Source of the DNA: Pseudothioglobus sp. nBUS_23
Lineage (GTDB): Bacteria; Pseudomonadota; Gammaproteobacteria; PS1; Pseudothioglobaceae
DNA: 32,000 nt
Assembly (NCBI RefSeq): GCF_051201565.1
Contig: NZ_CP179200.1
Span: 90,001 to 122,000 of the forward strand
Direction of reading: 5' to 3'
The position numbers and the translations under genes were made by a program. This document shows positions 1 through 24,174 of the stretch, piece after piece. Below the pieces are notes generated by a model. The model ran no database searches. It was not told where the DNA came from and saw nothing but the letters and a program-made list of their open reading frames with translations. Positions within the stretch are counted from its first letter, which is position 1. Each line of letters opens with the position of its first letter.

Positions 1-650
1 CAATCCCAATAGTTAAAGATTCAAGAATTGGTTGGATTAAGAATATTCTATTTAGAGATTTAGATAATGATGGGGACATAGATTTATATCTAAACTCCAT
101 GGATCAAAGCACTAATGGTTCAGTTTTTGTAAATAATGGCGACTTTAACTTTTCATTAATAATGCCACCTGAGGCATACAAGTTATATGGGTCGCTAGCG
201 CAAAATGGCATAATTGAGTCTCTCGTAGATAGAGAAGAAAAAGTAAGTCAGCTTGCTGAACTTAAAAAGAAACAAGAAGAGGAAAAAGCTAAAAGGCTTG
301 CCAAGGATAGGGAAAATAAAAAAAATAATTTTAAATATTCGTCACGAAACTTTAAATCTCAGTTAAAACTATTACAGACTCAAGGTAATTTAGCGGTTTG
401 TAAAGCTATTTTAAAAGAGTTCCATGCTGGTGATTACTACAGCCAAACTAATAAAGAAACTTATTTATTTATCTCCATTGATAGTAATGGCTTGGATTGT
501 CATTATGAATGGTCTAGAAATGAAAACAATGCCCTTAGACGATGTAAGCAAAATAATAAAACAGATGGTAAATGCACAATCTATGCCCTAGGTGATAACA
601 TTGTTTGGGGTGATCCTGAGCTTTATAAGGAATTAACTGGAAGAAAATAG
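1..650 (+). CDS. 3' part of a further FG-GAP/VCBS-type member of the array family (5' end lies left of the window)
   Basis: Frame 3 is open from nt 3, upstream of the track Met at 99: IPIVKDSRIGWIKNILFRDLDNDGDIDLYLNS-MDQSTNGSVFVNNGDFNFSLI. This aligns with the C-terminal part of the 10517..12088 product (ILFNDLDSDGDYDLYLAS..GTVFINNGNFDFTMI). A Lys/Glu-rich helix and a Cys-containing tail follow. Confidence 0.75.
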   Translation, partial: IPIVKDSRIGWIKNILFRDLDNDGDIDLYLNSMDQSTNGSVFVNNGDFNFSLIMPPEAYKLYGSLAQNGIIESLVDREEKVSQLAELKKKQEEEKAKRLAKDRENKKNNFKYSSRNFKSQLKLLQTQGNLAVCKAILKEFHAGDYYSQTNKETYLFISIDSNGLDCHYEWSRNENNALRRCKQNNKTDGKCTIYALGDNIVWGDPELYKELTGRK

Positions 651-725
651 GTGCCATCCTTCGCATATATATACTGACTTTGAAGGTACGGGGGAGCCCC
701 TCTTGGCCTTTCGGATATATGTATA

Positions 726-778
726 CACCCTCCCTCACACATCAAACGAAATTTGGAATTCTATTTGAGCTATAATTT
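726..778 (+). repeat. Array intergenic element, copy 1 (variant B: core + TTCTATTTGAGCTATAATT)
   Basis: Reads CACCCTCCCTCACACATCAAACGAAATTTGGAATTCTATTTGAGCTATAATTT. The core ACATCAAACG lies 67 nt upstream of the ATG at 806. Confidence 0.9.
771..776 (+). promoter_or_regulatory. Candidate -10 box (TATAAT) inside variant-B element
   Basis: Perfect TATAAT 30 nt upstream of the ATG at 806. The same box is conserved at 5994..5999 and 7937..7942. No convincing -35 hexamer was found. Confidence 0.35.
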
Positions 779-805
779 AACTTTCTATTTATCTCATTCT
801 GCTTA

Positions 806-2068
806 ATGAAAAAAATATTATTTATATTTGTTTTGTCTTTGTACTCTATTCAAGGATTGGCCTCATCATGTCCTGATGGAAGCGAACCAGTTAAAAGTAT
901 CTCTGATGATGGCACTTATTTTGTTTTCAATTGCCCTGATCAAGTATCTCCTGATACTGATACTAATAAAGGTCTTATTAAATCTAATGACATTAGCTTT
1001 CCAGGTAAATTTTATACAACAGAAATTAGCGCCTGTAATGCCTTAGTCCCCGTATCTTTTAGCTTGAATTCTTCTATTAATCTTGTTAAAGGTTTAGTTG
1101 GCTATGATTGGCATGCTGATTGGGAGGCAAACAGTAATTCCATGAATGTTTATCATCAAAAAATTACAGAACCAATGAATATGCTAATGGCAGCAACGCA
1201 TAACGCATTGGGAAACGATTATCAAGCTAATATTAGCATAGCTAAAAACTTGTTAATAGAACTGGCTAAAACAGATACCTTGTATGACAGTATTGGCTAT
1301 ATTGAAGTCAGAAAGAAACCTGGTTGCTATGCCGGTGGTGATATAAATGCACCCTGCTGGTACCATGAATATCAATTCGCCAGTAACGTATTTTCAAATT
1401 ACATGATTACTGCATTATGGTTGCGAGATGAACTCAACGAGCAGGAGTTTGAGATTGTAGATAAGTACATCAAAAAGATGTACAAAAAGTTTCTACAGCC
1501 AATAGAACTTCAGGAAGAGGAGCAGGGTTTTTATGCCATGGCTAATGGTGGCACATCAATTCTTGCATACGCATCTTGGACAAATGATAAAGAGCTTGCT
1601 GCAGAAGAAATAAATCACAGGTTTAAAGAAATGGATAGGCTATTCTATGATGATGGCTACATAAACAACAATTCATTCAGAGGATATAGAGGTCAATGGT
1701 ACCACTCTTATGGATTAGATATTGCACTTGGTTACGTCTATATTGCGGAATTATGGGGCGCAGAGATTCCAGACAAACTTCAAAACAAATTAGTTAAAGC
1801 ATCAGAAGTTGTAAACCTAGCTATAACTGATTGGGACAAGTTTAAAAGCAGAAAGTATGACGGCAATCAAAGTAATGCTATTAATGACCCAAATAATGCC
1901 ATAAAGCACACTCACCAAGTCGCAATTGCAATAGACACACTAATGAAAATTGTCACTGGTGTAGAACTCGAGTACGACCCTGTGTACCTTCAAAAAAGAA
2001 AGTACCAAATTGGAAAGTCCAACGGAATAGATGAATTGATTGGATTTCCCCCAAATTGTATTAATTAG
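806..2068 (+). CDS. Array family member: signal peptide + CPDGSEP Cys-loop module + all-alpha alginate-lyase-like (PF05426-like) body
   Basis: N-terminus is MKKILFIFVLSLYSIQGLASS-CPDGSEPVKSISDDGTYFVFNC. The body has segments reminiscent of the alginate_lyase fold (ALGNDYQANISIAKNLLIELAK; ALWLRDELNEQEFEIVDKYIKKM; DDGYINNNSFRGYRGQWYHSYGLDIALGYVYIAELWG). The fold assignment is from memory of the family, not a search. Confidence 0.8.
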   Translation: MKKILFIFVLSLYSIQGLASSCPDGSEPVKSISDDGTYFVFNCPDQVSPDTDTNKGLIKSNDISFPGKFYTTEISACNALVPVSFSLNSSINLVKGLVGYDWHADWEANSNSMNVYHQKITEPMNMLMAATHNALGNDYQANISIAKNLLIELAKTDTLYDSIGYIEVRKKPGCYAGGDINAPCWYHEYQFASNVFSNYMITALWLRDELNEQEFEIVDKYIKKMYKKFLQPIELQEEEQGFYAMANGGTSILAYASWTNDKELAAEEINHRFKEMDRLFYDDGYINNNSFRGYRGQWYHSYGLDIALGYVYIAELWGAEIPDKLQNKLVKASEVVNLAITDWDKFKSRKYDGNQSNAINDPNNAIKHTHQVAIAIDTLMKIVTGVELEYDPVYLQKRKYQIGKSNGIDELIGFPPNCIN

Positions 2069-2090
2069 GCATCAGCGTTAGGACACTCTA

Positions 2091-2140
2091 CTTTCCCTTA
2101 CACATCAAACGAAATTTGGACTTTAGTTCAAGTTGACATA
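2091..2140 (+). repeat. Array intergenic element, copy 2 (variant A: core + CTTTAGTTCAA)
   Basis: Reads CTTTCCCTTACACATCAAACGAAATTTGGACTTTAGTTCAAGTTGACATA. It starts 22 nt after the stop at 2068. Confidence 0.9.
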
Positions 2141-2205
2141 TATCTGATTGTTTAAATTTAGCCATGGTATTCTTAATTGAATCCTAGTTAAACCTTAATA
2201 CTTTT

Positions 2206-3870
2206 ATGAAAAAACTATTCCTTCTCTTAATTCTTTCCTTCTTCTCAGTTCAAAGTTTAGCGGGGTCCTGTCCAGATGGAAGTGAGCCAATCAAGAGTAT
2301 TTCAGAGGACGGCACTTATTTTGTTTTCAACTGCGGTGTTAGCAATGAACAATCATCTTCAAATAGCAACGATTCATCTTCCTCTTCCTCAGTAAAAGCT
2401 GTTAAATTTGAATCATTTGTGGATACTGAGACATCATCAAGTTGTAAAGACCTCGATACAAATTTTTATCGTAAGAGCTCCAATAAGTGCTCAATCATTG
2501 CTGTCCTAGATAGAAAGCCTAAATTTCCAGGCGGACATTGGTTCAAGAATGTTTGGCAAACATCAGGATTGCTTATCCATCGAGTTAATAAAAATGGAAA
2601 TCTTGAAATAGTTGGTAAAGCTGAAAACATTCAAGTAGAGACAAATGAGAAAACAGATCGGCCTGGCCAAATGGAGATTGCAACCATTGAAGTTAATACA
2701 GAAGAGCTTGGCTCAAAATCTGTTGAAGTCATTAAAAACCCAATTGTTGAAATACCAGCCTCTACTATTCGAATGGTCTTGACTGATGTTAATCAAGATG
2801 GCTTAACTGAATTAGTCATTGCAGGTATGCTTGAAGATGGTAGGCATCAGGATTCATCATGGAAGGATGTGAATTATATCTATGACTTTGAGACTGAAAG
2901 CTATACAAAGTTTGGCAAACCAATGTATTCACATGACTTCGTAGCTGGAGATTTAGATGATGATGGCTATGATGATTTTATTGATATATCCTGGGGTGGA
3001 GATCATCAGGGATCGGGGATTGGTGTGTGTAATGGAAAAAGCTTGGAGTGCGTTTATCAGAACCATCCTACAAGACTTCAAACATCTAAAACATCACTTT
3101 CTGTCTATCCTAACAAAAAAGGTGGCATCTTATTTCACAACTGCGATAAGGAGTATTTAAGTTGGTGCTGGTCAGAGGTGACTTACAATAATTGGGGTAT
3201 AGAGTTAAAGCCTTTAGACAAGTATATTGCTAGTAAAAAGCCTGATAAGGAGGAGCTATTTAATAACTGGTCAGGATGGGAGCAAAAAAGAAAAGGATGG
3301 GCAGTGCCTGGATATGAAACGAGCGAAAGATTTAAATTAATCAGCGAATCCTATCGTTCTCATCAATTCGACATGGATGGCGATGGTGACTTTGATACTG
3401 CCACCTGGAAAGAAAATCGACTTTGCAAAAAATCAGCTTCAGAAAAAGTATATCAAATTACCTCCGATTGTAAACCTGTAGGAGAGATGTTTTTCTTTAG
3501 AAATGATAATGGCAAGTTTACTGTTTCGGATAGGCATGAGATTGACCCTGGCGCAACAACGCGCTTATACAGCTTCGACATAAATCAAGATGGCCATATG
3601 GATTTTTATGCCTTTAGAGACGAGTGGAATACATTTGAGTGTAATAATCAAATTAATAATATATTCTTTGGTAATGGCGATGGAACTTTTAGGAGGCCGT
3701 CAGTTAAAGAGCAAAGTGAAATCTTTGGGAACTACGGCTGTGAAATACAATCATATTTCTTCGACTTTGAGGGTGACAGCTATAGAACTTTCTTTACTCA
3801 CAAATACTCAAAGAATTTCTCTGGAAGTAGGGCAGTATATGTTGGTGTGGAGAAACTTGCTAATAATTAA
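2206..3870 (+). CDS. Array family member: signal peptide + Cys-loop module + Ser-rich linker + FG-GAP/VCBS repeat body
   Basis: N-terminus is MKKLFLLLILSFFSVQSLAGS-CPDGSEPIKSISEDGTYFVFNC, then SNEQSSSNSNDSSSSSS. DxDxDG-type repeats are present (LTDVNQDGLTELVIAG, VAGDLDDDGYDDFIDIS, FDMDGDGDFD, FDINQDGHMDFYAF). Confidence 0.85.
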   Translation: MKKLFLLLILSFFSVQSLAGSCPDGSEPIKSISEDGTYFVFNCGVSNEQSSSNSNDSSSSSSVKAVKFESFVDTETSSSCKDLDTNFYRKSSNKCSIIAVLDRKPKFPGGHWFKNVWQTSGLLIHRVNKNGNLEIVGKAENIQVETNEKTDRPGQMEIATIEVNTEELGSKSVEVIKNPIVEIPASTIRMVLTDVNQDGLTELVIAGMLEDGRHQDSSWKDVNYIYDFETESYTKFGKPMYSHDFVAGDLDDDGYDDFIDISWGGDHQGSGIGVCNGKSLECVYQNHPTRLQTSKTSLSVYPNKKGGILFHNCDKEYLSWCWSEVTYNNWGIELKPLDKYIASKKPDKEELFNNWSGWEQKRKGWAVPGYETSERFKLISESYRSHQFDMDGDGDFDTATWKENRLCKKSASEKVYQITSDCKPVGEMFFFRNDNGKFTVSDRHEIDPGATTRLYSFDINQDGHMDFYAFRDEWNTFECNNQINNIFFGNGDGTFRRPSVKEQSEIFGNYGCEIQSYFFDFEGDSYRTFFTHKYSKNFSGSRAVYVGVEKLANN

Positions 3871-3918
3871 ATTAGATTAAAAAAGTTTAATAATTAATTC
3901 ATTGAGGATTGATACTAG

Positions 3919-3970
3919 CCATTCACTTACACATCAAACGTAATTTGGACTTTAGTTCAAATTGAGTCTA
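3919..3970 (+). repeat. Array intergenic element, copy 3 (variant A)
   Basis: Reads CCATTCACTTACACATCAAACGTAATTTGGACTTTAGTTCAAATTGAGTCTA. The core lies 60 nt upstream of the ATG at 3990. Confidence 0.9.
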
Positions 3971-3977
3971 ATTAAGG

Positions 3978-3983
3978 TATAGT
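3978..3983 (+). promoter_or_regulatory. Candidate -10 box (TATAGT) exactly 6 nt upstream of the start codon; possible leaderless transcript
   Basis: The layout is TTCAAA-N16-TATAGT-N6-ATG(3990). The same TATAGT-N6-ATG geometry recurs at 10505..10510 before the ATG at 10517. Confidence 0.3.
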
Positions 3984-3989
3984 TTATGT

Positions 3990-5939
3990 ATGAAAAAACT
4001 ACTCTTATTTTTAATTTTATTTTTCTTTTCAATACAAAGTTATGCAAACTCCTGCCCTGATGGCAGTGACCCAGTTAGGAGTATTTCTGCTGATGGTACT
4101 TATTTCGTCTTTAACTGCAGTAGTAATAGTGAAAATGCTTCTCAGTCCAATAATTCAGCTTCAACTGAGGAAAAAACTCAAATTGAGTGGGTTGATGGTT
4201 TATATGCAAAATCAATAACAGATGAATTCAATGTCTTAAGCAAAGATTTCAGTAAGTCTGTCGAATCTGGGGGTTCAATGATTACACCCCTTGGTTCGGG
4301 TGATTTTTCAGGAGACGGCATGCCTGAAATTGTTTACGGCATACAATATTGGGATTTAAAAAAAGGCTCTCATATTAAGCCAATATTTTTGACAAAAACT
4401 CCTGGCAAGGGTTTTTCTTTGTTTAGACCAATAATGGATATAGTTCCATATACTTGCAATGCTAGAAGTTCGGTCATTGAGGATTTCAATGGAGATGGGG
4501 TCAACGATATTTTCATTGCTGACACTGGAGTTGACTATGATCCATTTCCTGGCTGCCAAAACTCATTAATCTTGAGCGCTCCTAACGGCAAATTTATAAA
4601 TGCTACTTCAAACTTACCACAAATATTAGACTTTACTCATGGAGTTACCAGTGGAGATGTTGACTCAGATGGGGATATTGATTTGTTTGTTACGCAAGCA
4701 GGCATTGACGTTAATGTACCCCATTATTTCTTAAGAAATAATGGCAAAGGTAGATTTACTAAAATTCCAGATGGGCAACTATTAGATAGGGGTCTTTCTT
4801 ATATATCGTGGAAACCTGGTAATAAAAGAAGAAACATTTTCTATACTCCAGGTTTGGAGTTTGTTGATGATGATGACAAGCTTGATTTAATTCTTTTAAG
4901 TGGCAAGCTTGAAGGTGTTGACAACAACAGAATAATTTTTGGTTCGAATTCTGGATTCAAAAAAAGCGATGCCCTTGAACTTCAACCCGGAAGATTTGGC
5001 AGGAAAAGTGCTGGATACAATTATCTCGTAACAGATATTGATAATGATGGTGATAACGATATATTGATACTTCATGTAACCATAAACCTATTGATAGAGC
5101 GGAGTCATCTCGGCATAGATCTTCAAGTTCTTATCCAAGAAAATAATCGAAAATTCGTCGATAAAAGTAATTTTTATTTTCCAGGAATTACCTTTGATTA
5201 TGGAACGTGGAACAAATCGCTTAATTTGATAGATATAAATAATGACGATAAAAATGATATTGTATTGGTTTCTGGTAACGGAATTGACGACCCATCCAAA
5301 CAGCAAATAGGAAGTCAAATTAAAACAAGCCCGCCTAAGGTGTTGATTAGACAAGAGGATGGCTCATTTAGACCTCTAAATAATGATTTACTTACTGGGG
5401 GAGAAAAAAACACTCTTGCAGGTATTCGCCCAATCGATATAGATAATGACGGAGATATAGAATTTGTTGTCCATAAAGGCTCAGAAAAAGGGTTTACTCT
5501 TCAAGTACTCGAGTTAACAACTAATAAAGATGAATCCACGTTGGAGTCCTTTAGACCCACCCATAGCAATCGCTCGTCAGATACAGTTCTAAGTAGCCCG
5601 TTATTTGATGGACGCTATTCTTTTACTATATCACGCTTCAATGAAAATGATGGAAGTCAGCGCCTAGGAAATGGTTATATTGAAATCAACAATGGAATCA
5701 TGACTGTGGCAAAAGAGGGTCGCACTCTAGATAAAAGAATTGGTTCAATAGACTTGTATGATTCATTTAAAGGTCAAATTGATAAGGAAGGCAATATTAT
5801 CAGTTCGCTTAAAATAAATGTCTTGACTGGAAAGACCCATTTATTTTTAGTAGATTTAAATGGGAGTATCGATAGCCCATTACAAGGTGAGTGGGACCAT
5901 TATTTTGACGTGATTTTGAAGTTGGATAAAAAAGAGTAA
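3990..5939 (+). CDS. Array family member: signal peptide + Cys-loop module + FG-GAP/VCBS body + C-terminal FDGRYSF module
   Basis: N-terminus is MKKLLLFLILFFFSIQSYANS-CPDGSDPVRSISADGTYFVFNC, then a Ser/Asn linker. Repeats include FSGDGMPEIVYG, EDFNGDGVNDIFIAD, TSGDVDSDGDIDLFVT, VTDIDNDGDNDILIL, LIDINNDDKNDIVLV and IDIDNDGDIEFVV. The last ~113 aa are homologous to the C-terminus of the 7972..10113 product. Confidence 0.85.
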   Translation: MKKLLLFLILFFFSIQSYANSCPDGSDPVRSISADGTYFVFNCSSNSENASQSNNSASTEEKTQIEWVDGLYAKSITDEFNVLSKDFSKSVESGGSMITPLGSGDFSGDGMPEIVYGIQYWDLKKGSHIKPIFLTKTPGKGFSLFRPIMDIVPYTCNARSSVIEDFNGDGVNDIFIADTGVDYDPFPGCQNSLILSAPNGKFINATSNLPQILDFTHGVTSGDVDSDGDIDLFVTQAGIDVNVPHYFLRNNGKGRFTKIPDGQLLDRGLSYISWKPGNKRRNIFYTPGLEFVDDDDKLDLILLSGKLEGVDNNRIIFGSNSGFKKSDALELQPGRFGRKSAGYNYLVTDIDNDGDNDILILHVTINLLIERSHLGIDLQVLIQENNRKFVDKSNFYFPGITFDYGTWNKSLNLIDINNDDKNDIVLVSGNGIDDPSKQQIGSQIKTSPPKVLIRQEDGSFRPLNNDLLTGGEKNTLAGIRPIDIDNDGDIEFVVHKGSEKGFTLQVLELTTNKDESTLESFRPTHSNRSSDTVLSSPLFDGRYSFTISRFNENDGSQRLGNGYIEINNGIMTVAKEGRTLDKRIGSIDLYDSFKGQIDKEGNIISSLKINVLTGKTHLFLVDLNGSIDSPLQGEWDHYFDVILKLDKKE

Positions 5940-5948
5940 GTCAAAAAC

Positions 5949-6000
5949 CACCCTCCCTCACACATCAAACGAAATTTGGATTTCTATTTGAGCTATAATT
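5949..6000 (+). repeat. Array intergenic element, copy 4 (variant B)
   Basis: Reads CACCCTCCCTCACACATCAAACGAAATTTGGATTTCTATTTGAGCTATAATT. It starts 9 nt after the stop at 5939. TATAAT lies at 5994..5999. Confidence 0.9.
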
Positions 6001-6033
6001 AAATTTTTATCTACAAATCCTCCTTTCTATCTT

Positions 6034-7857
6034 ATGAAAAAAATATTATTTATTTTTGTGCTGTCTTTGTATTCAATTCAAGGATTTGCTTCATCATGCC
6101 CTGATGGCAGTGAGCCAGTAAGGAGTATTTCTGCTGATGGAACTTATTATGTTTTTAGCTGCGAGGGTGGAAACAAAAAAGCATCTTCATCTAATACGAA
6201 TATAAATGTAGGGCCAGTAAGCATTAATATCCACGATGAGTACCATTATAATAATTTTCCTGGACTTGTCAGTTTAGACTTTGCCTTTGCGATTAGAACA
6301 GCCTTTTATGGATATGTCCAAATACCCTTGATTGATGTCAATGATGATGGACACAAAGATTTGATATTTAATTCAGACCCACCTTACGCTGGACCTAATG
6401 TTGAAGTTACACAAAACACTGCGAATTTAGTGGTATCTCCTTGGCTTGAGGAGTGGAAAGAATACGATATGATTGATACACTCGAATCACCAAATACCAC
6501 ATTTGGAAGAGGTGATAACATTCGAGTCGCTGACTTCAATGGTGACGGCAGAATGGATATGGTAATCGCGTCAAGTAGTCTGGGACAAATTGACGGTCGG
6601 TTTGATTATGGAGGCGTAATAGTACTTACAAATACAGGTAAAGGTATATTTACTCCCAAGTATATTGGCAAAAAACAATTCACTCACGCACACGGTGTTG
6701 GCGATGTAGATAGTGACGGTGATATTGATATTATCTATCATCAATTAAATGATAAAAATATTTTGTGTGCTTACAACGACGGCAAAGCAAATTTCACAGT
6801 CAAACCGTGTCTGCGAACACCAATAGATACAATACGAGGATTCATTCAAAATGTTTGGGGTTTTCGTATTGCCGACTATGATAACGACGGATTTAATGAT
6901 GTTCTTGTTTTAGCACACCACGGCCCTAAAAAAACAACCTTCTTTCAACATCAATATCGTAACAACCAACTAAAGAACCCAGGAATATTTTGGGGCAATG
7001 GAAGTGGCCAGTTCTCTTGGAATGATATGACATTTATCGACTTATCTGAATGGAATGATAAACCATTTGACCAAGGTGAAGTTTACTTTGATGGTTCAGG
7101 AGCAAGTCAAACCACAGTAGATATTGGTAATGATGGTGATGTTGATATTGCTATCAATATATTATCCAAGTGGACTGTAGGTAGTGCGGTTGTGTTAGTT
7201 GAAAATTTAGGTAATCGAGAGTTTACGACTAAAGAGATTACTCGTTCAAAGTACCTAAAAGAAGACCCCAAACGTTTTCGCACAATTCAGGACAAACATA
7301 CACAAGCCAGTACTCCTGTTAATTTGCACGAAGGTATCGTTTGGAACCAGGCTTGTATGCCAAAGTTTATTGATTTAAATAGCGACAACATAGATGACAT
7401 GATTTGTGAAGGTATCTCTTATGTTGTTACTAATGAAATTGCAAAAAGTGATTGGGAGAATCATTCACCCGAGCATCAACGAATTACTCCTTTTGCAAAT
7501 ACGAGTGACTGGACTTGGGATTGGAGTATGGGCCAAACTTATTACATCTTAGACGAAGAAAGCAATGTGCTTGATGAAGGTCATATCTTTAACAAGACTA
7601 GAAGTGACTTTTCTAATGAATTCAAACGTGGTGGTTACAAAATCAAAACAGTTGGGTATAGATTTCAGAATGACTCTACTAGTCAAGCACAAATAGCAAC
7701 AGAGATTGCTGCTCAAGAGTTAATGGATGAAATATTAGAGGAAGTTGACGACAAAGTTTCTTTACCTGTTATTAAAGAAAAAACATCAGCAGAGATAGCT
7801 GCTCAAGAGTTAATGGATGAAATATTAGAAGAATTAGAAGCAGAATCTAGTCAGTAA
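6034..7857 (+). CDS. Array family member: signal peptide + Cys-loop module + FG-GAP/VCBS body + acidic helical tail with internal duplication
   Basis: N-terminus is MKKILFIFVLSLYSIQGFASS-CPDGSEPVRSISADGTYYVFSC. Repeats include VADFNGDGRMDMVIAS, GVGDVDSDGDIDIIYH, IADYDNDGFNDVLVLA and VDIGNDGDVDIAINI. The tail carries EIAAQELMDEILEE twice. Confidence 0.85.
   Translation: MKKILFIFVLSLYSIQGFASSCPDGSEPVRSISADGTYYVFSCEGGNKKASSSNTNINVGPVSINIHDEYHYNNFPGLVSLDFAFAIRTAFYGYVQIPLIDVNDDGHKDLIFNSDPPYAGPNVEVTQNTANLVVSPWLEEWKEYDMIDTLESPNTTFGRGDNIRVADFNGDGRMDMVIASSSLGQIDGRFDYGGVIVLTNTGKGIFTPKYIGKKQFTHAHGVGDVDSDGDIDIIYHQLNDKNILCAYNDGKANFTVKPCLRTPIDTIRGFIQNVWGFRIADYDNDGFNDVLVLAHHGPKKTTFFQHQYRNNQLKNPGIFWGNGSGQFSWNDMTFIDLSEWNDKPFDQGEVYFDGSGASQTTVDIGNDGDVDIAINILSKWTVGSAVVLVENLGNREFTTKEITRSKYLKEDPKRFRTIQDKHTQASTPVNLHEGIVWNQACMPKFIDLNSDNIDDMICEGISYVVTNEIAKSDWENHSPEHQRITPFANTSDWTWDWSMGQTYYILDEESNVLDEGHIFNKTRSDFSNEFKRGGYKIKTVGYRFQNDSTSQAQIATEIAAQELMDEILEEVDDKVSLPVIKEKTSAEIAAQELMDEILEELEAESSQ
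7701..7834 (+). repeat. In-frame direct repeat (two ~44-nt copies, period 90 nt) within the acidic tail of the 6034..7857 CDS
   Basis: 7701..7744 (agagattgctgctcaagagttaatggatgaaatattagaggaag) and 7791..7834 (agagatagctgctcaagagttaatggatgaaatattagaagaat) differ at 2 positions in the first 42 by hand alignment. Confidence 0.85.
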
Positions 7858-7892
7858 ATAAAGCCCCTCTCGACCTCGTAGATAGATATATA

Positions 7893-7943
7893 CTTCCTCA
7901 CTTACACATCAAACGAAATTTGAATTCCTTTTGAACTATAATT
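7893..7943 (+). repeat. Array intergenic element, copy 5 (variant B)
   Basis: Reads CTTCCTCACTTACACATCAAACGAAATTTGAATTCCTTTTGAACTATAATTT. TATAAT at 7937..7942 lies 30 nt before the ATG at 7972. The sequence just upstream (7861..7892) is also homologous to 695..725. Confidence 0.9.
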
Positions 7944-7971
7944 TAACTTTCTATTTATCTCATCCTACTTA

Positions 7972-10113
7972 ATGAAAAAAATATTATTTATTTTTGTGCT
8001 GTCTTTGTATTCAATTCAAGGATTTGCCTCATCATGCCCTGATGGCAGTGAGCCAGTAAGGAGTATTTCCGATGATGGTACTTATTATGTATTTAACTGC
8101 TCAGAGCCAGTTTCAACTTCTGAAGATTCAAGCCCTCGCTCTAGCAAACTACTTCCAGACAAGCTTAAAGAAATCAAAGTGGTAAAGGATTGGGAGCCCA
8201 TTGCTGATTGGGAGTCTGTAAAAGAATATGCTAAGCTGGTTCCAATTCCCAGATGGAAAAATGAAAGTATTTATGATCAATATGTTGACAGAAATTGTAG
8301 TGAGAGATTTACGAGCGTAAACCCTTATCCAGGTGATAATCCTTCAGCAAGAATTTTTGCGCATTGTCAATCATACCTTCATGCAGCGTCTTCAAATAAC
8401 CCACAAATACTAGGTGACATTTTACTGTCCTGGGCCTCAGCTTCAAAAGATCCAATGTTTGTTGTGCCTTATGAGGTTGAAACCCATGAAATCAAACATT
8501 CTGTTGCAGGCTACAATATCCCATCAGCCATTGGCACATTTGCCCAGTCTTATGCATTCTGGTATGACGAAATAGCATACACGCCAGAGGAGCGTCAACG
8601 GGTAGATGATTACATGACTAAGAAACTAATGGAGCAAAAATTTCTCCCGATAAGTCGTGACTACAATGGACCGCGCATTAAATGTGATATTAATGATCTT
8701 AGTAGCGTTTACAGTGAACGAACCGGCACAAATAACTGTGGCAATGTGCGAATGAAAGTAGCAGTGGGTGAAATTATGCTTGGTTTTAGATTAGAAAACC
8801 AAACTTTGTTAGATAAAGGGCATGATGATATGTATGTCGTGCATGCCTTTATTAATGAAGACGGTATTAATATCAATCATGCTTCAAGGGGCGGTAATAC
8901 AGTGAACTACTCTTGGGAATACACATACTACTCAAGTCTATTAGCAGAGATATATGATTCAGTTGGTTATGACTATTTTGAGCATACGCTTCCTCGCGGG
9001 GCAAAAGTTCATGAGTATTTAAGCTTTAATTACAGGCTATTAAAAGATTTTAAGCTGACTGCCCAATGGGCAAAATATAATATTGGGTCATTGTGGCTGC
9101 CCTATGATCAGATCAAGAATTTATCACAACAATTATATGAAAAAACTACTAATGGGGGATGGGCTTATAGCTGGGAGGATGGTGATAAAGAGTTTGTAAA
9201 AGCACACACTAAATTTGTGAAGCGTTATATGCCAGAGCTTTACAATTTTGATGTAAAAAATTACATGGGTTCAAATTTTAATGATTCACCTAATTTTGGT
9301 GTTCATCCCTACATGCTCCATATAGGTAATAACGTATTAGAAGAAAATTCTAATACTTCAAAGATTGAACTTTTACGTCAAGCTAAGTTACAAGAAGAAA
9401 TTGATCAATGTGCTAAAGCAACTTCTGATAGTGGGTTTAATGGCGAATATGAGGCCAAATGGTTTCGAGATCATTGGAATGGCAATGGTGAGTGGGAGTT
9501 TGTAGGCTCAGAGCCTCTCATTCTAGATCAATGCGAAGGTGAATTTGAAGGCTTAAAACAATTTGATCCTCGCCCTACACCAGCAGTTAGAAAAAAGCTA
9601 ATTGTCAAGTATCAATCAAATGGTGACATTTCAATTAAGGGTGATTTGAATTTATATACTATTGATGACCTTAGATATACCGAACTTTATGGAAATATTA
9701 ATGATGGTGAAATTTCAGGAGTTTGGGGCTTTGGTAATCGCCTAAAGATAGAGTTTTCCAAGAAACCAAAGCCAACAGAACTCTTTGATGGTCGCTATAG
9801 TTTTGAATTGTTTCGTTATGCAGAGGATGAAGCTGACGATATAGGCAATGGCATCATTAACATATCTAATGGTCAAATAACTATTGATGAGAGTAATCGA
9901 AATTTGCAAACAGGAGATTCAGATTTGTATGATACTTTTAGTGGTCAAGTTGATAAAAATGGAGACGTATCTGGCTCTGTTAAACTCGATATTTATAGTT
10001 CGGGACAAAAATCAGAAGAATTTTTCTTTGAAGGCCTGATAGATGAAGAAATATGGGGAGAATCTCCTATAGAAGACTTTTTCAAAGTTTATATGAAACT
10101 AAAAAAGCAATAG
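7972..10113 (+). CDS. Array family member: signal peptide + Cys-loop module + alginate-lyase-like all-alpha body + C-terminal FDGRYSF module
   Basis: N-terminus is MKKILFIFVLSLYSIQGFASS-CPDGSEPVRSISDDGTYYVFNC. The body resembles the 806..2068 body (ERQRVDDYMTKKLMEQKFLPI versus FEIVDKYIKKMYKKFLQPI; NEDGININHASRGGNTVNYSWEYTYYSSLLAEIYDSVGYDYF). The C-terminal 111 aa are homologous to the tail of the 3990..5939 product. Confidence 0.85.
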   Translation: MKKILFIFVLSLYSIQGFASSCPDGSEPVRSISDDGTYYVFNCSEPVSTSEDSSPRSSKLLPDKLKEIKVVKDWEPIADWESVKEYAKLVPIPRWKNESIYDQYVDRNCSERFTSVNPYPGDNPSARIFAHCQSYLHAASSNNPQILGDILLSWASASKDPMFVVPYEVETHEIKHSVAGYNIPSAIGTFAQSYAFWYDEIAYTPEERQRVDDYMTKKLMEQKFLPISRDYNGPRIKCDINDLSSVYSERTGTNNCGNVRMKVAVGEIMLGFRLENQTLLDKGHDDMYVVHAFINEDGININHASRGGNTVNYSWEYTYYSSLLAEIYDSVGYDYFEHTLPRGAKVHEYLSFNYRLLKDFKLTAQWAKYNIGSLWLPYDQIKNLSQQLYEKTTNGGWAYSWEDGDKEFVKAHTKFVKRYMPELYNFDVKNYMGSNFNDSPNFGVHPYMLHIGNNVLEENSNTSKIELLRQAKLQEEIDQCAKATSDSGFNGEYEAKWFRDHWNGNGEWEFVGSEPLILDQCEGEFEGLKQFDPRPTPAVRKKLIVKYQSNGDISIKGDLNLYTIDDLRYTELYGNINDGEISGVWGFGNRLKIEFSKKPKPTELFDGRYSFELFRYAEDEADDIGNGIINISNGQITIDESNRNLQTGDSDLYDTFSGQVDKNGDVSGSVKLDIYSSGQKSEEFFFEGLIDEEIWGESPIEDFFKVYMKLKKQ

Positions 10114-10115
10114 AA

Positions 10116-10170
10116 ACTCCCTCCCTCACACATCAAACGAGATTTGGACTTTAGTTCTAATTGACATATA
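10116..10170 (+). repeat. Array intergenic element, copy 6 (variant A)
   Basis: Reads ACTCCCTCCCTCACACATCAAACGAGATTTGGACTTTAGTTCTAATTGACATATA. It starts 2 nt after the stop at 10113. The core lies 68 nt upstream of the ATG at 10198. Confidence 0.9.
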
Positions 10171-10197
10171 ATCCTATTTTTTTTAGGAGAGACTTAG

Positions 10198-10431
10198 ATG
10201 ATGCGATTTGCTAAATACGAACAACACTTAAAGTGGTTCGCACTATTCCTTGGTATCCTAAGCACAATTGCCATTATCAATGACTTGTATCCTTATACAA
10301 TGTTTATTGGACTTCCTTTTTGCTTAATCTGGGTTTACTGTGCTTGGCTTCATACTGAAAAACAATTGAAATGGATTAATATAATCTTTACTGGGTTATA
10401 TACATATGGAATAGTGAATTACTATATTTAG
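10198..10431 (+). CDS. Small (77 aa) predicted 3-TM membrane protein, bracketed by two copies of the array element
   Basis: There are three hydrophobic stretches (WFALFLGILSTIAIINDLY, MFIGLPFCLIWVYCAWL, WINIIFTGLYTYGIVNYYI). A strong SD (AGGAGA) lies 6-7 nt upstream. No array-family N-terminal module is present. Confidence 0.65.
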   Translation: MMRFAKYEQHLKWFALFLGILSTIAIINDLYPYTMFIGLPFCLIWVYCAWLHTEKQLKWINIIFTGLYTYGIVNYYI

Positions 10432-10442
10432 CATTAATTAAT

Positions 10443-10493
10443 ACCCCTCCCTCACACATCAAACGGAATTTGGACTTTAGTTCAAATTGAGTC
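10443..10493 (+). repeat. Array intergenic element, copy 7 (variant A)
   Basis: Reads ACCCCTCCCTCACACATCAAACGGAATTTGGACTTTAGTTCAAATTGAGTC. The core lies 61 nt upstream of the ATG at 10517. Confidence 0.9.
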
Positions 10494-10504
10494 CTATTAA
10501 GAGG

Positions 10505-10510
10505 TATAGT
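10505..10510 (+). promoter_or_regulatory. Candidate -10 box (TATAGT) 6 nt upstream of the start codon; possible leaderless transcript
   Basis: The layout is TTCAAA-N18-TATAGT-N6-ATG(10517), the same geometry as at 3978..3983. Confidence 0.3.
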
Positions 10511-10516
10511 TAGATT

Positions 10517-12088
10517 ATGAAAAAACTATTCCCTCTCTTAATTCTGTCCTTCTTATCAGTCCAAAGTCTTGCGGGTTCATGCCCTGATGGCAGTGAGCCA
10601 ATTAAGAGTATTTCAGAGGACGGCACTTACTTTGTATTCAACTGTGGTGGTGGCAATAAACAATCATCTTCATCTACTGCTAATTCATCAAATGTCAATT
10701 CAAAAACAAAAGCATTAGCTGGTATTTATATTGAGAATGATCCCAATATTAATTTCTTTGCTCCGCCATCACATCCTCCACCAACAAGAGTGCTATACCC
10801 TGGAACAGGTGGATATTTTAAGGCTGATTTTAATAATGATGGTCTAACTGATCTTATCTATGCTGGTGGAATGCATGCAGAAAACTATGGCTGTTCTTAT
10901 CAAGATAGATGTACTCTCCAACAGCAGGATGATGGTATTAAACCACAACCTGCACTTTATATGGGCGGCGCTGATGGTAAGTTTAACTACTCGCCTGAGC
11001 TGTTGATTGATAATCGTGACAATAAAGGCATGTCAGTTGGAAGGCAGTTACTAATCGCAGACTATAATAATGATAAAGTGTTAGATATTTATATTGCAGA
11101 CCACGGACAGACGCATCAAAACCAAGGTTATCGTGATAGTTATTATCTAAGTCAGCCAAATGGAACGTGGCTCGAGTCAAGTAACACCCATCTTAGTGAT
11201 AATAACTTCATAGCGTATGCACACGGCGCGGCTACCGGCGATATTGATAATGATGGCGATATGGATGTTGTGCTAACTGACTGGAGAACGTTTTGGTGTT
11301 TAATGAATGATGGTAGTGGGTTTTTAGCAAAACGTCAATGTGGCGGCAGTAATGCATTTGGTCTGGAGCTAGCTGATATGGACAATGATGGCAACTTAGA
11401 TGCTATATTTGGCGGTAATGAATATGGGGGCAATGGTTTCCCAACTGGAATTTACTGGAATGATGGTCAAGGAAATTTTATACCCTATACCATAACCCGA
11501 CTTAAGCAACACAAAGTATGGGGGGGAATATCTGAAGTATCGGCCTGGGATTTAGACAATGACGGTGATATGGACATAGTTTATGGTAGGAATAAAAAAT
11601 CAATTAAAGGAGCTGCGATACAAATTATAGAAAACTTAGGTAACAAGAAGTTTAAGGACCATGGAATCTTTCCAGTAGATAGTAACTTTAGTGTTTTTAT
11701 CATGTCTATTCTATTCAATGATTTAGATTCTGATGGTGATTATGATTTGTATCTTGCTTCAAAATCTCATTTGACTGATGGAACAGTTTTTATAAACAAC
11801 GGTAATTTTGATTTTACAATGATTAAGCCAGATGATAGACCGTCACCTAAATCATTAGGACTTTATGAAATGTTAGATGATAGCAGTGTAGTAATACCTA
11901 AAAAAGTATTAGAAGAACTTGCCGCAGAAGAAGAAGCTAAAGCTAAAAGTTATAGAGAAGCCTTAGCAGCTAATCTCAAACGTATCGCTGAAAAAGCTGA
12001 TAAGGCAACAGAAAATGAAACTGAGCAATCGATTGAAGATGAAATCGCAGCGTTTGAAGCTGAACTAGAAGCAGAACTTGGTCAGTAA
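10517..12088 (+). CDS. Array family member: signal peptide + Cys-loop module + FG-GAP/VCBS body + acidic coiled-coil-like tail
   Basis: N-terminus is MKKLFPLLILSFLSVQSLAGS-CPDGSEPIKSISEDGTYFVFNC, then a GGGNKQSSSSTANSSNVNS linker. Repeats include KADFNNDGLTDLIYAG, IADYNNDKVLDIYIAD, ATGDIDNDGDMDVVLTD, LADMDNDGNLDAIFGG, AWDLDNDGDMDIVYG and FNDLDSDGDYDLYLAS. The tail reads EELAAEEEAKAKSYREALAANLKR..IEDEIAAFEAELEAELGQ. Confidence 0.85.
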   Translation: MKKLFPLLILSFLSVQSLAGSCPDGSEPIKSISEDGTYFVFNCGGGNKQSSSSTANSSNVNSKTKALAGIYIENDPNINFFAPPSHPPPTRVLYPGTGGYFKADFNNDGLTDLIYAGGMHAENYGCSYQDRCTLQQQDDGIKPQPALYMGGADGKFNYSPELLIDNRDNKGMSVGRQLLIADYNNDKVLDIYIADHGQTHQNQGYRDSYYLSQPNGTWLESSNTHLSDNNFIAYAHGAATGDIDNDGDMDVVLTDWRTFWCLMNDGSGFLAKRQCGGSNAFGLELADMDNDGNLDAIFGGNEYGGNGFPTGIYWNDGQGNFIPYTITRLKQHKVWGGISEVSAWDLDNDGDMDIVYGRNKKSIKGAAIQIIENLGNKKFKDHGIFPVDSNFSVFIMSILFNDLDSDGDYDLYLASKSHLTDGTVFINNGNFDFTMIKPDDRPSPKSLGLYEMLDDSSVVIPKKVLEELAAEEEAKAKSYREALAANLKRIAEKADKATENETEQSIEDEIAAFEAELEAELGQ

Positions 12089-12090
12089 TT

Positions 12091-12130
12091 AACCTCCCTC
12101 ACACATCAAACGAAATTTGGACTTTAGTTA
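12091..12130 (+). repeat. Array intergenic element, copy 8 (terminal copy, truncated after CTTTAGTTA; no downstream + strand gene)
   Basis: Reads AACCTCCCTCACACATCAAACGAAATTTGGACTTTAGTTA and starts 2 nt after the stop at 12088. Confidence 0.9.
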
Positions 12131-12496: not shown

Positions 12497-12499
12497 ATT

Positions 12500-12552
12500 A
12501 TCAAACGAAGTTGGACTGTCTTAGGGTATCAAACTAAATTTGGACTTTAACT
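12500..12552 (+). repeat. Two degenerate half copies of the array element lacking the C-rich 5' part
   Basis: 12500..12524 reads ATCAAACGAAGTTGGACTGTCTTAG and 12528..12552 reads ATCAAACTAAATTTGGACTTTAACT. Both are in the same orientation as copies 1-8, between two minus-strand genes. Confidence 0.7.
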
Positions 12553-13225
12553 ACAGTTTATTTTCCCAGATTGCTTCCTTGATAGCCGGAATAAGCATTG
12601 ATGAAGTAGGCCAATCTTCGCAATGCTGATAGCGGTGAGCAAGCTGAATTATCCCTTTTTGATCAACGACAAATTCTCCTGGCAACTGCCATGGGCTATC
12701 TACCAGGCCACCATCTGTGCCGTGACGAGACTTCTGCAATTCTGCACCAGTCTCATAATCGATATTAAGGTACTCATCAGGCGCGTCATAGACAATTTGT
12801 GAAGGCTTGCCTTCCAACAAGTCATAGGCTTCATAGACACTAAATGTTGGGTCACATAAGACAGGGCAGGGTATGCCGTTTCTTTGACTGTATTCTTTTG
12901 AACGCTCAGGCTCGCCTTGACCAATCACGACGACAGAGGCGCCCAGCTTAATGTAATCCGCGTATTCATTTTTTAGACTATTGGCACGGTCAACCCCGCA
13001 ACTACAACCATAATGCCTCCAGAACATGATTAATGCTGGACCATTACTCCAAAAATCTTGCAAATGAACTAATTTCCCCGATGTATCTTGCAATTCAAAA
13101 TCAGGAGCCAAGTCCCCAACTTGGAGCGGCACTTTATCCCACCGAAGACGCGTTGGTCCTTTTTTCCAAAGATCTAACCACTCTTTTTCAGCAGCTTCGA
13201 TTTGGTTATCTACTATTGATTTCAT
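12551..13225 (-). CDS. AhpC/TSA (peroxiredoxin-like) thioredoxin-fold protein
   Basis: APDFELQDTSGKLVHLQDFWSNGPALIMFWRHYGCSCG is a typical redoxin N-terminal pattern with Cys near the start of helix 1. An SD-like AAGGGG lies upstream. Confidence 0.75.
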   Translation of the reverse strand: MKSIVDNQIEAAEKEWLDLWKKGPTRLRWDKVPLQVGDLAPDFELQDTSGKLVHLQDFWSNGPALIMFWRHYGCSCGVDRANSLKNEYADYIKLGASVVVIGQGEPERSKEYSQRNGIPCPVLCDPTFSVYEAYDLLEGKPSQIVYDAPDEYLNIDYETGAELQKSRHGTDGGLVDSPWQLPGEFVVDQKGIIQLAHRYQHCEDWPTSSMLIPAIKEAIWENKL

Positions 13226-15636: not shown

Positions 15637-15951
15637 ATGAAAATTAAATATTTATTAGTATTTATTAGTTGTCTTTTTGGTGTTTCATTAGCAAACAATC
15701 TTGATGATTGGTCTAATGAGGACCTCTGCAGGTGGGTTGAGGCTGTCTCAGTGCCAGACCCAATTTTATTTGAGATAGAGGTCAGAGAGCTAGCATGTTT
15801 TTCAAATCTTGATGTAAGCGATAACTCTATTCAAGAACCCTATGCCGCAGAACATGGAACAGTATTTCCTTCACCTTCATCTAATAATGGCTCCAACAAA
15901 AATTCAGAGAGCGGCATAAGGTTCATTTTCAATTACAGGGTTAAATTATAA
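15637..15951 (+). CDS. Small secreted Cys-pair protein, paralog 1 (DDWSNxDLCxW family)
   Basis: The signal peptide MKIKYLLVFISCLFGVSLA is followed by NNLDDWSNEDLCRWVEAVSVPDPILFEIEVRELAC...GTVFPSPS. It is paralogous to 18483..18779 and, more distantly, to 20542..20892. Confidence 0.7.
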   Translation: MKIKYLLVFISCLFGVSLANNLDDWSNEDLCRWVEAVSVPDPILFEIEVRELACFSNLDVSDNSIQEPYAAEHGTVFPSPSSNNGSNKNSESGIRFIFNYRVKL

Positions 15952-18362: not shown

Positions 18363-18482
18363 TAGCTTTGCTGAAAAAAGTTACACTTGAAATAAGATTT
18401 TCATTTAGAAAACACATAATTTACATTTAAAAAAAAATAAATTAGCATATATTTGATGTTTTTTTAATAAAAACCCATTTTG

Positions 18483-20443: not shown

Positions 20444-20541
20444 AATGTTATAAATATTTTACTTAATGTAAAAAAAAACATACACTATATTTTTTTAAAA
20501 AAATTAAGATATAGTTCCTAGTGACTTATAATTATTTAATA

Positions 20542-22450: not shown

Positions 22451-22582
22451 CTAAGGCTTGTTTCTTCTGCATCTCTCACTGCAATATAGAACATGCTCCC
22501 AATCCTTTCTCCATTTCTTTCTCCAGGCAAAGGGCTTTCCACAAGTTTTACACATTTTTTCAGGTTTCATCTTACATTCCAT
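22451..22582 (-). CDS. DUF2256 zinc-ribbon protein
   Basis: [30 protein letters not shown] is the DUF2256 signature. The start is at MECKMKPEK (22582) or MKPEK (22570). The track ORF extends to 22786, but that extension overlaps the MORN gene and is not credible. Confidence 0.8.
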
Positions 22583-22604
22583 AAGTTTGAAATATAATTC
22601 TACT

Positions 22605-23469: not shown

Positions 23470-24174
23470 TTAGGCTTCTGATTCTTTAACAGCAACATTC
23501 CAAATAATCAAACCAAATAGGATTTTGTTAACAAAATCCGCAAGGTTATATACGATATTCAGAGTGCCGTTATCTACGGAGCCCATCATGTAGCCGAAAA
23601 TGTATCCTAATGGATAAATTGCCCAGCCAACGAGCACGATAAGTCTCAGCGCATTGAAAGCTGCTTTCACACCAGCATTAGCCTCTGCGGCTTTACTTGC
23701 CTCTCCACCAAAGATTTCCCAGATGATAACAGCCCAACCAATCATACCAATAATGAATCCTAGGCTTGCTGACATAACGCCTGCTTCACCAAGGTAACCA
23801 CCAATGAGCATGACCAGGGTACCTATGAGAAGTCTCCAGAACGAGCTAGAGGAAACTGCAGCACCTACGGCCTTAAGAATAATAAAGAATTCAATCATTA
23901 ATAGAGGCACTGTAATTAGCCAATCAATGTATCGGTAGACAATTGGAGACTGAGCCTCACCAGCGATGAGCGAAGCAACCCAGTAGTCTCTCATGTAGAG
24001 ATAATGAACACCTGCAACTAATGTTACTAGTCCAGCAACTGTCATTGAAAGTCTCCACTCCTTTTTTACTGCCATTCCTTCATAAAAAAAGAACACAGTT
24101 GCAGCAACCATAGCTACAGAGACAATCCAGAAAGAAACGCCGACAAAATCGCCGTCTTGTAAAAAATGTTCCAT
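23470..24174 (-). CDS. Proteorhodopsin (light-driven proton pump, green-tuned type)
   Basis: The C-terminus NLADFVNKILFGLIIWNVAVKES is near-identical to classical proteorhodopsin, with the Schiff-base Lys in DFVNK. RYIDWLITVPLLMIEF provides the D/T/E motif (equivalents of D97, T101, E108) and Leu at the position-105 equivalent. VHYLYM retains the His75 equivalent. The SD AAGGAG lies upstream. Confidence 0.95.
   Translation of the reverse strand: MEHFLQDGDFVGVSFWIVSVAMVAATVFFFYEGMAVKKEWRLSMTVAGLVTLVAGVHYLYMRDYWVASLIAGEAQSPIVYRYIDWLITVPLLMIEFFIILKAVGAAVSSSSFWRLLIGTLVMLIGGYLGEAGVMSASLGFIIGMIGWAVIIWEIFGGEASKAAEANAGVKAAFNALRLIVLVGWAIYPLGYIFGYMMGSVDNGTLNIVYNLADFVNKILFGLIIWNVAVKESEA

Follow-up and report, generated by a model that had tools for sequence, protein, structure and literature searches.

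The stretch of DNA considered here (hereafter the window) comprises 32,000 nucleotides (nt) of Pseudothioglobus sp. nBUS_23, and positions 1-12.1 kb are occupied by seven genes on the + strand, the complete members of which share an N-terminal leader placed before bodies of two unrelated folds. The region is best explained as a flexible-island array of Pseudothioglobus (SUP05/Arctic96BD-19 clade) that encodes Sec-exported proteins with a portable 5' unit, and its central element is a 22-residue segment of the leader, bounded by two cysteines and modelled as a β-hairpin. A first-pass annotation, made from the sequence alone, had described the same seven genes as a tandem array with a constant leader and exchanged cargo domains, and had read them as a dedicated modular export or display system. 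The open reading frames (ORFs) called here coincide with its coordinates, and both the ORF calls and the alignment support its description of seven tandem genes, of which the six complete ones begin with the same ~45 amino acids (aa).

Seven genes, one N-terminus and two cargo folds

Gene 1 (3..650) is truncated at its 5' end by the window edge and retains an FG-GAP-type C-terminal part, a charged helical stretch and a Cys-containing tail, as judged from its translation, a sub-threshold FG-GAP_3 match and BLAST similarity to gene 7. The six complete genes all encode a signal peptide, the hairpin and a linker ahead of the body. Gene 2 (806..2068; hairpin 869-934) combines a short linker with a PL5-like all-alpha lyase-fold body, recognised through a sub-threshold Pfam match, AlphaFold and Foldseek, and gene 3 (2206..3870; hairpin 2269-2334) a Ser-rich linker with an FG-GAP body found by Pfam. 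Gene 4 (3990..5939; hairpin 4053-4118) encodes an FG-GAP propeller and a C-terminal FDGRYSF module (5595-5936), identified with Pfam and BLAST, and gene 5 (6034..7857; hairpin 6097-6162) an FG-GAP propeller with a duplicated acidic helical tail (7680-7838), identified with Pfam and repeat analysis. Gene 6 (7972..10113; hairpin 8035-8100) is made up of an alginate-lyase-family alpha body (approximately residues 60-484), a beta domain (residues 491-597; 9433-9774) and another FDGRYSF module (9775-10110), assigned from homologues, AlphaFold and Foldseek. Finally, gene 7 (10517..12088; hairpin 10580-10645) carries a Ser-rich linker, an FG-GAP propeller and an acidic helical tail, again according to Pfam and repeat analysis.

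When the N-termini of the six complete proteins are aligned, 24 of the 48 columns are invariant and pairwise identity ranges from 59 to 95%, and the same segment appears at the DNA level as a direct-repeat family of six copies, 175 nt long and 60-93% identical. The window consensus reads MKK, a hydrophobic core, S-x-Q-[SG]-[FYL]-A-x-[SG], then C-PDGS[ED]P-[VI]-[KR]-SIS-x-DGTY[FY]VF-x-C and, lastly, a linker rich in Ser and Asn. The limit of this shared segment can be seen in genes 2 and 6, which are 80% identical over residues 1-54 and have no significant similarity beyond them.

Only two fold classes, unrelated to each other, occur as cargo in the window: five genes encode FG-GAP propellers and two encode PL5-like alginate-lyase toroids. 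The bodies are not all homologous. Genes 3, 4, 5 and 7 score 43.9-109 bits against PF13517 (FG-GAP_3), for which the Pfam gathering cut-off is 26.9; gene 1 falls short of it with 23 bits, and its homology to gene 7 is shown by BLAST instead (45% identity to the C-terminal part, E 2e-14), and the five FG-GAP bodies of the earlier description can accordingly be upheld. The two lyase-like bodies can be upheld as well, given that the predicted models superpose on solved PL5 folds. Gene 2 scores 19.8 bits against PF05426, under the cut-off of 22.2, and its AlphaFold model (mean predicted local distance difference test, pLDDT, 84.9) is an all-alpha toroid that Foldseek matches to the PL5 lyases Smlt1473 and AlgL (E ~3e-4, template modelling score by target ~0.6). 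Gene 6 itself has no PF05426 match, several of its homologues contain the domain or are annotated by NCBI as 'alginate lyase family protein', and its model is matched to the alginate lyase A1-III (E 4.5e-6, template modelling score by target 0.6). On these models, genes 2 and 6 are predicted to adopt a PL5-like alginate-lyase fold, a statement about fold that implies neither activity nor substrate. The likeness to AlgL, A1-III and Smlt1473 lies at the level of fold, as the window bodies are only 10-17% identical to solved PL5 enzymes, and the likeness to the FG-GAP/VCBS propellers lies at the level of hidden Markov models (HMMs).

The C-terminal modules reported in the first pass were all observed, i.e., the FDGRYSF module in genes 4 and 6, the acidic helical tails that repeat analysis found common to genes 5 and 7, and the Cys-containing tail of gene 1. 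The FDGRYSF module is ~110 aa long and 39% identical between the two genes (E 6e-17), it recurs in 25 of the collected hairpin proteins in one to three tandem copies, and it appears in the model as an all-β segment with low pLDDT. Neither this module nor the β domain that precedes it in gene 6 matched a Pfam or NCBIfam family. In some proteins (P0197, L027), the module stands directly after the hairpin and linker.

The first-pass annotation had preferred a modular system to plain gene duplication, and here the evidence divides. The FG-GAP bodies can be aligned only over local stretches, at 23-45% identity, with gene 3 having no BLAST-level match to the others, and the bodies within each fold class are diverged paralogues, which is why duplication would explain the array in part, that is, its multiplicity within a fold class. 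On the other hand, the presence of one leader on two unrelated folds calls for leader transfer. The idea of a constant leader with swapped cargo is upheld in the same sense, the leader being found on non-homologous folds, while the dedicated export system that had been attached to it is not implied by this evidence.

The cysteine-bounded hairpin and the exchange of leaders

The hairpin has the 22-residue consensus C-PDGSEP-x-K-S-I-S-x-DGTYFVF-x-C, which is near-invariant in 281 sequences; the second cysteine is present in 277 of the 281, while the invariance of the first is built in, as the motif search demanded it. This first cysteine is residue 22 in 251 of 285 sequences. Both full-length AlphaFold models (genes 2 and 6) place strands at residues 29-32 and 39-42, followed by a linker with pLDDT <50. 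Relatives from another lineage (P0339, P0421, P0423, P0424, P0426) are lipobox variants, in which the lipobox L-[ST]-A-C is followed, after ~10 residues, by a divergent hairpin, C-[PS]-[ND]-G-[DS]-x-P-x-K-x-[VI]-S-x-DGSYYV-x-x-C. Since these lipoprotein relatives have a further Cys for lipidation while retaining the two of the hairpin, the hairpin cysteines most likely pair with each other, forming a disulfide in the periplasm.

The codons of the six window genes provide the clearest view of the constraint on this segment. In the hairpin, 109 synonymous differences stand against 47 non-synonymous ones, and the non-synonymous rate (dN) is 0.065 against a synonymous rate (dS) of ~1.5, with several pairs saturated, i.e., a dN/dS of ~0.04; in the signal codons, dN is 0.28 and dS 0.88. 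Given this low dN against saturated dS, the hairpin peptide itself is under strong long-term purifying selection. The identity of the leaders was judged not to stem from recent gene conversion alone, since synonymous sites are saturated in most pairs, the exception being the leaders of genes 5 and 6, which alone look recently homogenised (dS 0.075).

The module has no named domain family, as the first-pass annotation had already noted. The leader, hairpin and linker did not reach the threshold of any of the Pfam and NCBIfam sorting or secretion models (PEP-CTERM, GlyGly-CTERM, the C-terminal domain, CTD, of the type IX secretion system, T9SS, YSIRK, KxYKxGKxW, dockerin and others), and the best match, Stx2B, owed its 14-20 bits (cut-off 165) to the signal peptide. 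Neither the gene 2 profile nor a hairpin profile found anything significant among PDB sequences, the weak matches being generic β-propeller blade turns. No account of the motif or the family was found in the literature searched, in which a Pseudothioglobus article (PMC12421898) gave nothing on the family. The two-cysteine hairpin tag is new to the domain, structure and literature collections searched, and in kind it is kin to the N-terminal tags and tethers of secreted enzymes. A giant repeat protein of 1816 aa from a metagenome (P0236) was also seen to contain at least 13 copies of YPDGGRQITMSGDGTVFTFN, a repeat that resembles the hairpin without its cysteines, by either homology or convergence.

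An exhaustive HMMER search of 1.84 billion protein cluster representatives recovered the leader and hairpin in 275 of them, 208 at E <= 1e-10. Over genome loci and cluster representatives, the cargo behind the hairpin spans at least 18 Pfam families. Among 51 full-length representatives, it comprises FG-GAP_3 (11), the PF14099 polysaccharide lyase (7), Sel1 (6), alginate lyase (3) and SNase (2), together with single cases of a trypsin-like peptidase, GH5, GH113, a dienelactone hydrolase and a β-lactamase fold, and the genome loci gave a similar result. The genome matches come from single-cell genomes of SUP05/Arctic96BD-19 and from Pseudothioglobus/Thioglobus genomes, with one copy in a closed Njordibacter chromosome. 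Matches labelled as Alphaproteobacteria, Flavobacteriaceae, Marinimicrobia or Woeseiaceae are likely binning errors, because all of them lie on 1.5-8 kb contigs of binned genomes. Arrays are common without being obligatory, a single copy being found at most genome loci. A viral origin was rejected, as IMG/VR gave no relatives of either the leader-hairpin profile or the lipobox variant.

The hairpin can also be absent. Several orthologues have the same signal peptide without the hairpin and linker (P0327, P0346, P0364, P0366, P0369, P0323, P0336), other homologues of the gene 2 and gene 6 bodies have an alternative Cys-bounded mini-module (WSDKTVCRL...RGLSC) with a Ser-rich linker in the position of the hairpin, and Pelagibacter-like homologues have a plain signal peptide only. 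In light of these comparisons, the hairpin is an optional insert, one that lies outside the cargo fold and that Sec export does not need; a role for it as an export requirement is contradicted by the orthologues that keep the signal peptide alone.

A second Cys-bounded N-terminal mini-module of ~30 aa (DDW-S-[ND]-x-x-L-C-x-W ... C) was noticed in small secreted ORFs of the window (15637-15951, 18480-18779 and 20521-20892, all +). It has no Pfam match, it replaces the hairpin before the same lyase bodies in other lineages (P0344, P0398, P0405-P0413, P0425), and in P0235 it is combined with a leader of the Pseudothioglobus type. One lipobox-and-hairpin gene of the alginate-lyase-like kind (10001-11449 of L150, JGI Ga0400659_000693) lies amid many small ORFs, ThyX, S-adenosylmethionine synthetase, a 5'-3' exonuclease and a trypsin-PDZ protease; such surroundings could be phage-like, or could be a hypervariable part of a streamlined genome, and no match was obtained from IMG/VR.

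Exchange of leaders can be followed in the signal peptides. Gene 2 and its orthologue P0256 have bodies that are 90.5% identical and signals that agree at 11 of 21 positions, while the signal of gene 2 is identical at 20 of 21 positions to that of the unrelated gene 6, and that of P0256 at 19 of 21 to that of the unrelated P0380. The type of signal peptide thus tracks genomic context rather than cargo phylogeny, which argues that the 5' ends recombine. Internal leader scars were found in P0215 and P0235. Leader-only ORFs of 48-80 aa, frameshifted copies and internal partial leaders are common in metagenomes, and stubs consisting of the intergenic repeat (described below) and ATGAAGAAACTACTCC with nothing behind them were seen as well; remnants of these several kinds are found among proteins P0001, P0002, P0011, P0215 and P0235 and loci L062, L069, L078, L104, L130, L137 and L140. 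They are what frequent recombination, or decay, has left of the 5' units.

An orientation-locked repeat in the spacers

The conserved spacers of the array had been counted in the first pass as a sign of the export system. They are real, as they contain a 44-nt element (CCCTCCCTCACACATCAAACGAAATTTGGACTTTAGTT) that occurs in eight copies and a further partial one, where chance would give 0, all on the + strand and all within 1-12.6 kb. Copy 1 (CCCTCCCTCACACATCAAACGAAATTTGGA..., 722..765) has a longer 5' extension (651-721) that is common to L008 and L026, and is followed by copies 2 (2085..2128), 3 (3914..3957), 4 (5945..5988), 5 (7889..7932), 6 (10113..10156) and 7 (10439..10482). Copies 3 and 7 are each followed by a -10-like TATAGT, the end of which lies 6 nt ahead of the start codon of gene 4 and gene 7, respectively. 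Copy 8 (12086..12129) is terminal, with no co-oriented gene after it and a convergent DUF2200 gene following, and two partial repeat cores, ATCAAACGAAGTTGGAC and ATCAAACTAAATTTGGACTTTA (12498..12558, +), lie between two minus-strand genes. A hydrophobic ORF of 77 aa without the hairpin (10198..10431, +) is found inside the array between two repeat copies; it matches no Pfam or other family, and a Shine-Dalgarno-like AGGAGA was seen upstream of it by eye, without scoring.

Outside the window, copies were found in L004 (9876-9910 and 11418-11441) and at loci L029-L148, and other genomes likewise have the element conserved ahead of their hairpin genes, although it is not specific to these. The exact 20-mer core was recovered at 120 metagenome loci, and the 134 evaluable copies are distributed as 18 before hairpin genes, 27 before other signal-peptide proteins, 50 before other genes and 39 with no ORF within 150 nt. 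With only 18 of 134 copies preceding hairpin genes, and the others beside secreted proteins of other kinds, cytoplasmic proteins or convergent genes, the spacers are not part of an export system. The strongly conserved core measures ~35 nt (to ~55 nt), and all 15 of the multi-copy metagenome loci listed have their copies co-oriented within the neighbourhood. A co-oriented upstream gene ends within 150 nt in 66 of 98 copies (median gap 38 nt), a downstream gene starts in 46 of 98, and a convergent gene follows in 18 of 98; the association is thus closer with the 3' end of the preceding gene than with the start of the next. The repeat is a lineage-wide, orientation-locked intergenic element, and not evidence for an export system.

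Some 40% of the copies run on into TTcAAgTTGATATACAAT-6 nt-ATG, and many downstream genes start exactly 31 nt past the 20-mer. Many metagenome copies likewise show TATACAAT-6 nt-ATG, comparable to the TATAGT within 3956-3989 and 10481-10516 of the window. Because these -10-like hexamers end 6 nt before the ATG, they suggest candidate leaderless transcripts in a gammaproteobacterium.

A number of known kinds of element were rejected for the spacer. An intrinsic terminator is not supported by the scan, which found no terminator-like site in any intergenic spacer, and a promoter specific to hairpin genes is at odds with the metagenome copies, most of which flank other genes, and with the 18 of 98 that face convergent genes. 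No spacer matched an Rfam family when the whole window was scanned. The repeat folds no better than shuffled sequence on either strand (ΔG -1.4 to -5 kcal/mol, z-scores -1.3 to +0.75), and an integron attC was rejected on this basis. The layout nevertheless resembles that of integron cassette arrays, given that the repeats are short, co-oriented and placed just 3' of successive ORFs in flexible regions, and that a single unit with two flanking repeat copies exists in a foreign genome. In contrast to attC, however, the repeat is non-folding, has a core of only ~35-55 nt as opposed to 57-141 nt, and bears promoter-like hexamers; no integron integrase was recognised among the ORFs of the window, which starts inside the array and was the extent of this search within the genome.

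The foreign genome is that of Njordibacter (G+C content 0.44), where a single low-GC hairpin gene lies between a full and a partial copy of the element. This bracketing by element copies indicates the transfer of a repeat-bounded unit. The element may be a repeat that bears a promoter, or a site of recombination. Some arrays begin beside tRNA genes.

Possible function of the hairpin and competing explanations

The observations can be drawn together in one mechanism. The family-specific signal peptide would direct Sec export and be cut by signal peptidase I, leaving a 22-residue, disulfide-stapled β-hairpin at the mature N-terminus; a disordered linker rich in Ser, Asn and Gly follows as a flexible tether; and the cargo comes last, as a PL5-like toroid or FG-GAP propeller in the window and as PF14099 lyases, GH5, GH113, nuclease, protease or Sel1 proteins elsewhere. 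The hairpin would then serve as a shared docking or retention handle, fixing diverse envelope or extracellular enzymes to one partner in the cell envelope, while the array would grow by duplication and be reshuffled by recombination between the conserved 5' units, each made up of repeat and leader.

For this reading as a whole, anatomy and docking handle averaged into one figure, we estimate a probability of roughly 0.45, and its two parts differ widely. The anatomy, i.e., signal, two-cysteine hairpin, linker and cargo, is very probable. The docking or retention handle, the likeliest of the roles considered, is a tentative proposal and, on balance, a doubtful one. Several points weigh against the reading: the confidence of the hairpin model is moderate (pLDDT ~58-75); hairpin-less orthologues are common, so that the contribution of the hairpin may be subtle; the hairpin is also found on membrane-anchored lipoproteins, so that simple anchoring is not its only role; 166 of 232 leaders are still compatible with a permissive PROSITE-type pattern for lipoproteins; and no binding partner or envelope machinery was recognised among the other ORFs of the window, 13 of which were scanned with Pfam and the rest read by eye as translations.

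The alternative that survives best, although still improbable, is that the leader merely hitch-hikes. In this case, the repeat, promoter, signal and hairpin would form an expression and export cassette that is spread by recombination, and the role of the hairpin would be generic, such as signal-peptidase processing or protection of the N-terminus, with no specific partner. The swapping of leader types among orthologues, the frequency of leader stubs, scars and pseudogenes, the occurrence of the same repeat and an 'MKKLL' start before many other genes, and the dispensability of the hairpin in orthologues are all in keeping with such a cassette. Against it, the low dN/dS with saturated synonymous sites reveals long-term selection on the exact peptide, and a divergent hairpin has persisted behind an unrelated lipoprotein signal in another lineage.

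Somewhat less probable still is a dedicated sorting system, in which the leader and hairpin would be the recognition signal for an outer-membrane translocation or surface-display machinery, an N-terminal counterpart of the known C-terminal tags. The c-region of the signal and the hairpin are unusually conserved over unrelated cargo, under strong purifying selection, the tag is always N-terminal and carried on a flexible linker, and the cargo is enriched in typical exoenzymes, all of which speaks for this explanation. The export or display system proposed by the first-pass annotation, however, is not borne out by the neighbourhood: among the same 13 Pfam-scanned ORFs no secretion-system family was matched, and neither there nor among those read by eye was any candidate secretion or sorting machinery recognised beside the array. 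Orthologues with the same signal lack the hairpin, the hairpin also occurs behind an unrelated lipoprotein signal, and the conserved spacers are not specific to hairpin genes. A more elaborate form, in which SUP05/Arctic96BD-19 would possess an N-terminal sorting or docking system with the hairpin as its address tag, read by an envelope protein (for example, through β-strand augmentation) to hold exoenzymes at the surface, with the genes moved as repeat-bounded units by non-integron recombination, is a speculation of equally low probability.

No more probable than sorting is the possibility that these proteins are lipoproteins, the first cysteine being the lipidated +1 residue after cleavage by signal peptidase II, and the segment to the second cysteine, with the Ser-rich stretch, a tether that possibly includes a surface-exposure signal. 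A cysteine invariably ~21 residues from the start, with small residues ahead of it, would suit this explanation, as would the fit of the permissive pattern, the clear lipoproteins of another lineage and the Ser-rich stretch, a tether of this kind behind the lipid anchor being typical of lipoproteins. The details of the leader point elsewhere. The signal peptide consists of MKK, a core of 10-11 residues and S-x-Q-[SG]-[FYL]-A. Between the final strongly hydrophobic run and the Cys there is a gap of 9-15 residues, 12 in the majority of leaders, part of which is filled by the polar S-x-Q-[SG] of the c-region. A strict lipobox ([LVI][ASTVI][GAS]-C) fits only one of 232 leaders, position -3 is Ala in 269 of 281 sequences, and the residue directly before the Cys is D, K or E in eight of the 281. 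The LPAM_1 HMM aligns only to leader residues 1-10, stopping short of the Cys, while it aligns over its full length to the lipobox variant, and the lipoprotein relatives, as described above, have an extra, separate lipobox Cys and retain both hairpin cysteines. In a pattern test, the small residues that the -3/-1 rule requires were present in 224 of 232 leaders when the cut was placed after Ala, and in 222 of 232 when it was placed directly before Cys, and signal peptidase I would most likely cut after the invariant Ala, or two residues later, immediately before the Cys.

Lastly, an assembly or annotation artefact, which a region with 175-nt repeats of 60-93% identity might invite, has a negligible probability, given that the repeats are too diverged for assembly collapse and that the same architecture, with orthologous arrays, is found in independent single-cell genomes, isolates and metagenomes.

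The docking handle can be placed beside a number of known systems. In the Bacteroidota, the lipoprotein export signal sits after the Cys at +1, and Cellvibrio and Saccharophagus have lipoprotein carbohydrate-active enzymes with polyserine linkers. Such surface lipoproteins with an N-terminal tether resemble the hairpin proteins in having a short conserved element after the signal peptide, a Ser-rich linker and glycan-degrading cargo, and a lipobox-bearing hairpin variant exists; they differ in that the Pseudothioglobus leaders fail the strict lipobox and that, in place of an acidic peptide, the element is a β-hairpin of 22 aa with two cysteines. The dockerin-cohesin pairs of cellulosomes offer a small constant module on a flexible linker, shared by many unrelated enzymes, which suggests a common docking partner, but there is no sequence or HMM similarity, and the 22-aa hairpin is N-terminal and disulfide-based, whereas the dockerin is a Ca-binding module of ~70 aa.

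Similarly, the T9SS CTD, GlyGly-CTERM/rhombosortase and PEP-CTERM/exosortase systems present a lineage-restricted constant tag on heterogeneous secreted cargo. Those tags are C-terminal, with a cognate processing enzyme in the genome, while the hairpin is N-terminal and has no NCBIfam match. As regards the exchange of 5' ends, the vsp/vsa families of Mycoplasma and vlp/vsp of Borrelia are variable surface-lipoprotein families with a conserved 5' untranslated region and signal peptide. They are likewise tandem families in which the upstream region and signal are far more conserved than the mature protein and in which recombination occurs at the 5' ends. The window genes, in contrast, are all co-oriented with a start of their own, and their cargo consists of enzymes and propellers instead of antigenic repeats; no invertase or expression-site logic of the Mycoplasma or Borrelia kind was seen in the window array.

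Other genes of the window include a proteorhodopsin gene (23470..24174, -), a family-9 glycosyltransferase of the heptosyltransferase-like kind (14429-15532, +), a MORN-repeat protein (22458-23390, +) and a secreted pentapeptide-repeat protein (27358-27885, +).

Free-living marine bacteria with small genomes must hold their costly exoenzymes, and the products of these, near the cell, by means that are poorly understood. In one of the ocean's most abundant gammaproteobacterial clades, a short and strongly selected tag is found here on lyases and glycosidases, on a nuclease and a protease, and on many FG-GAP proteins. This tag could serve to predict the secreted or surface proteome of the clade from sequence, and would offer a handle for the search for a partner and for distinguishing retention from release. 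It also marks a rapidly recombining island in which cargo genes exchange signal peptides and mini-modules, and the intergenic repeat may explain how such islands are built.

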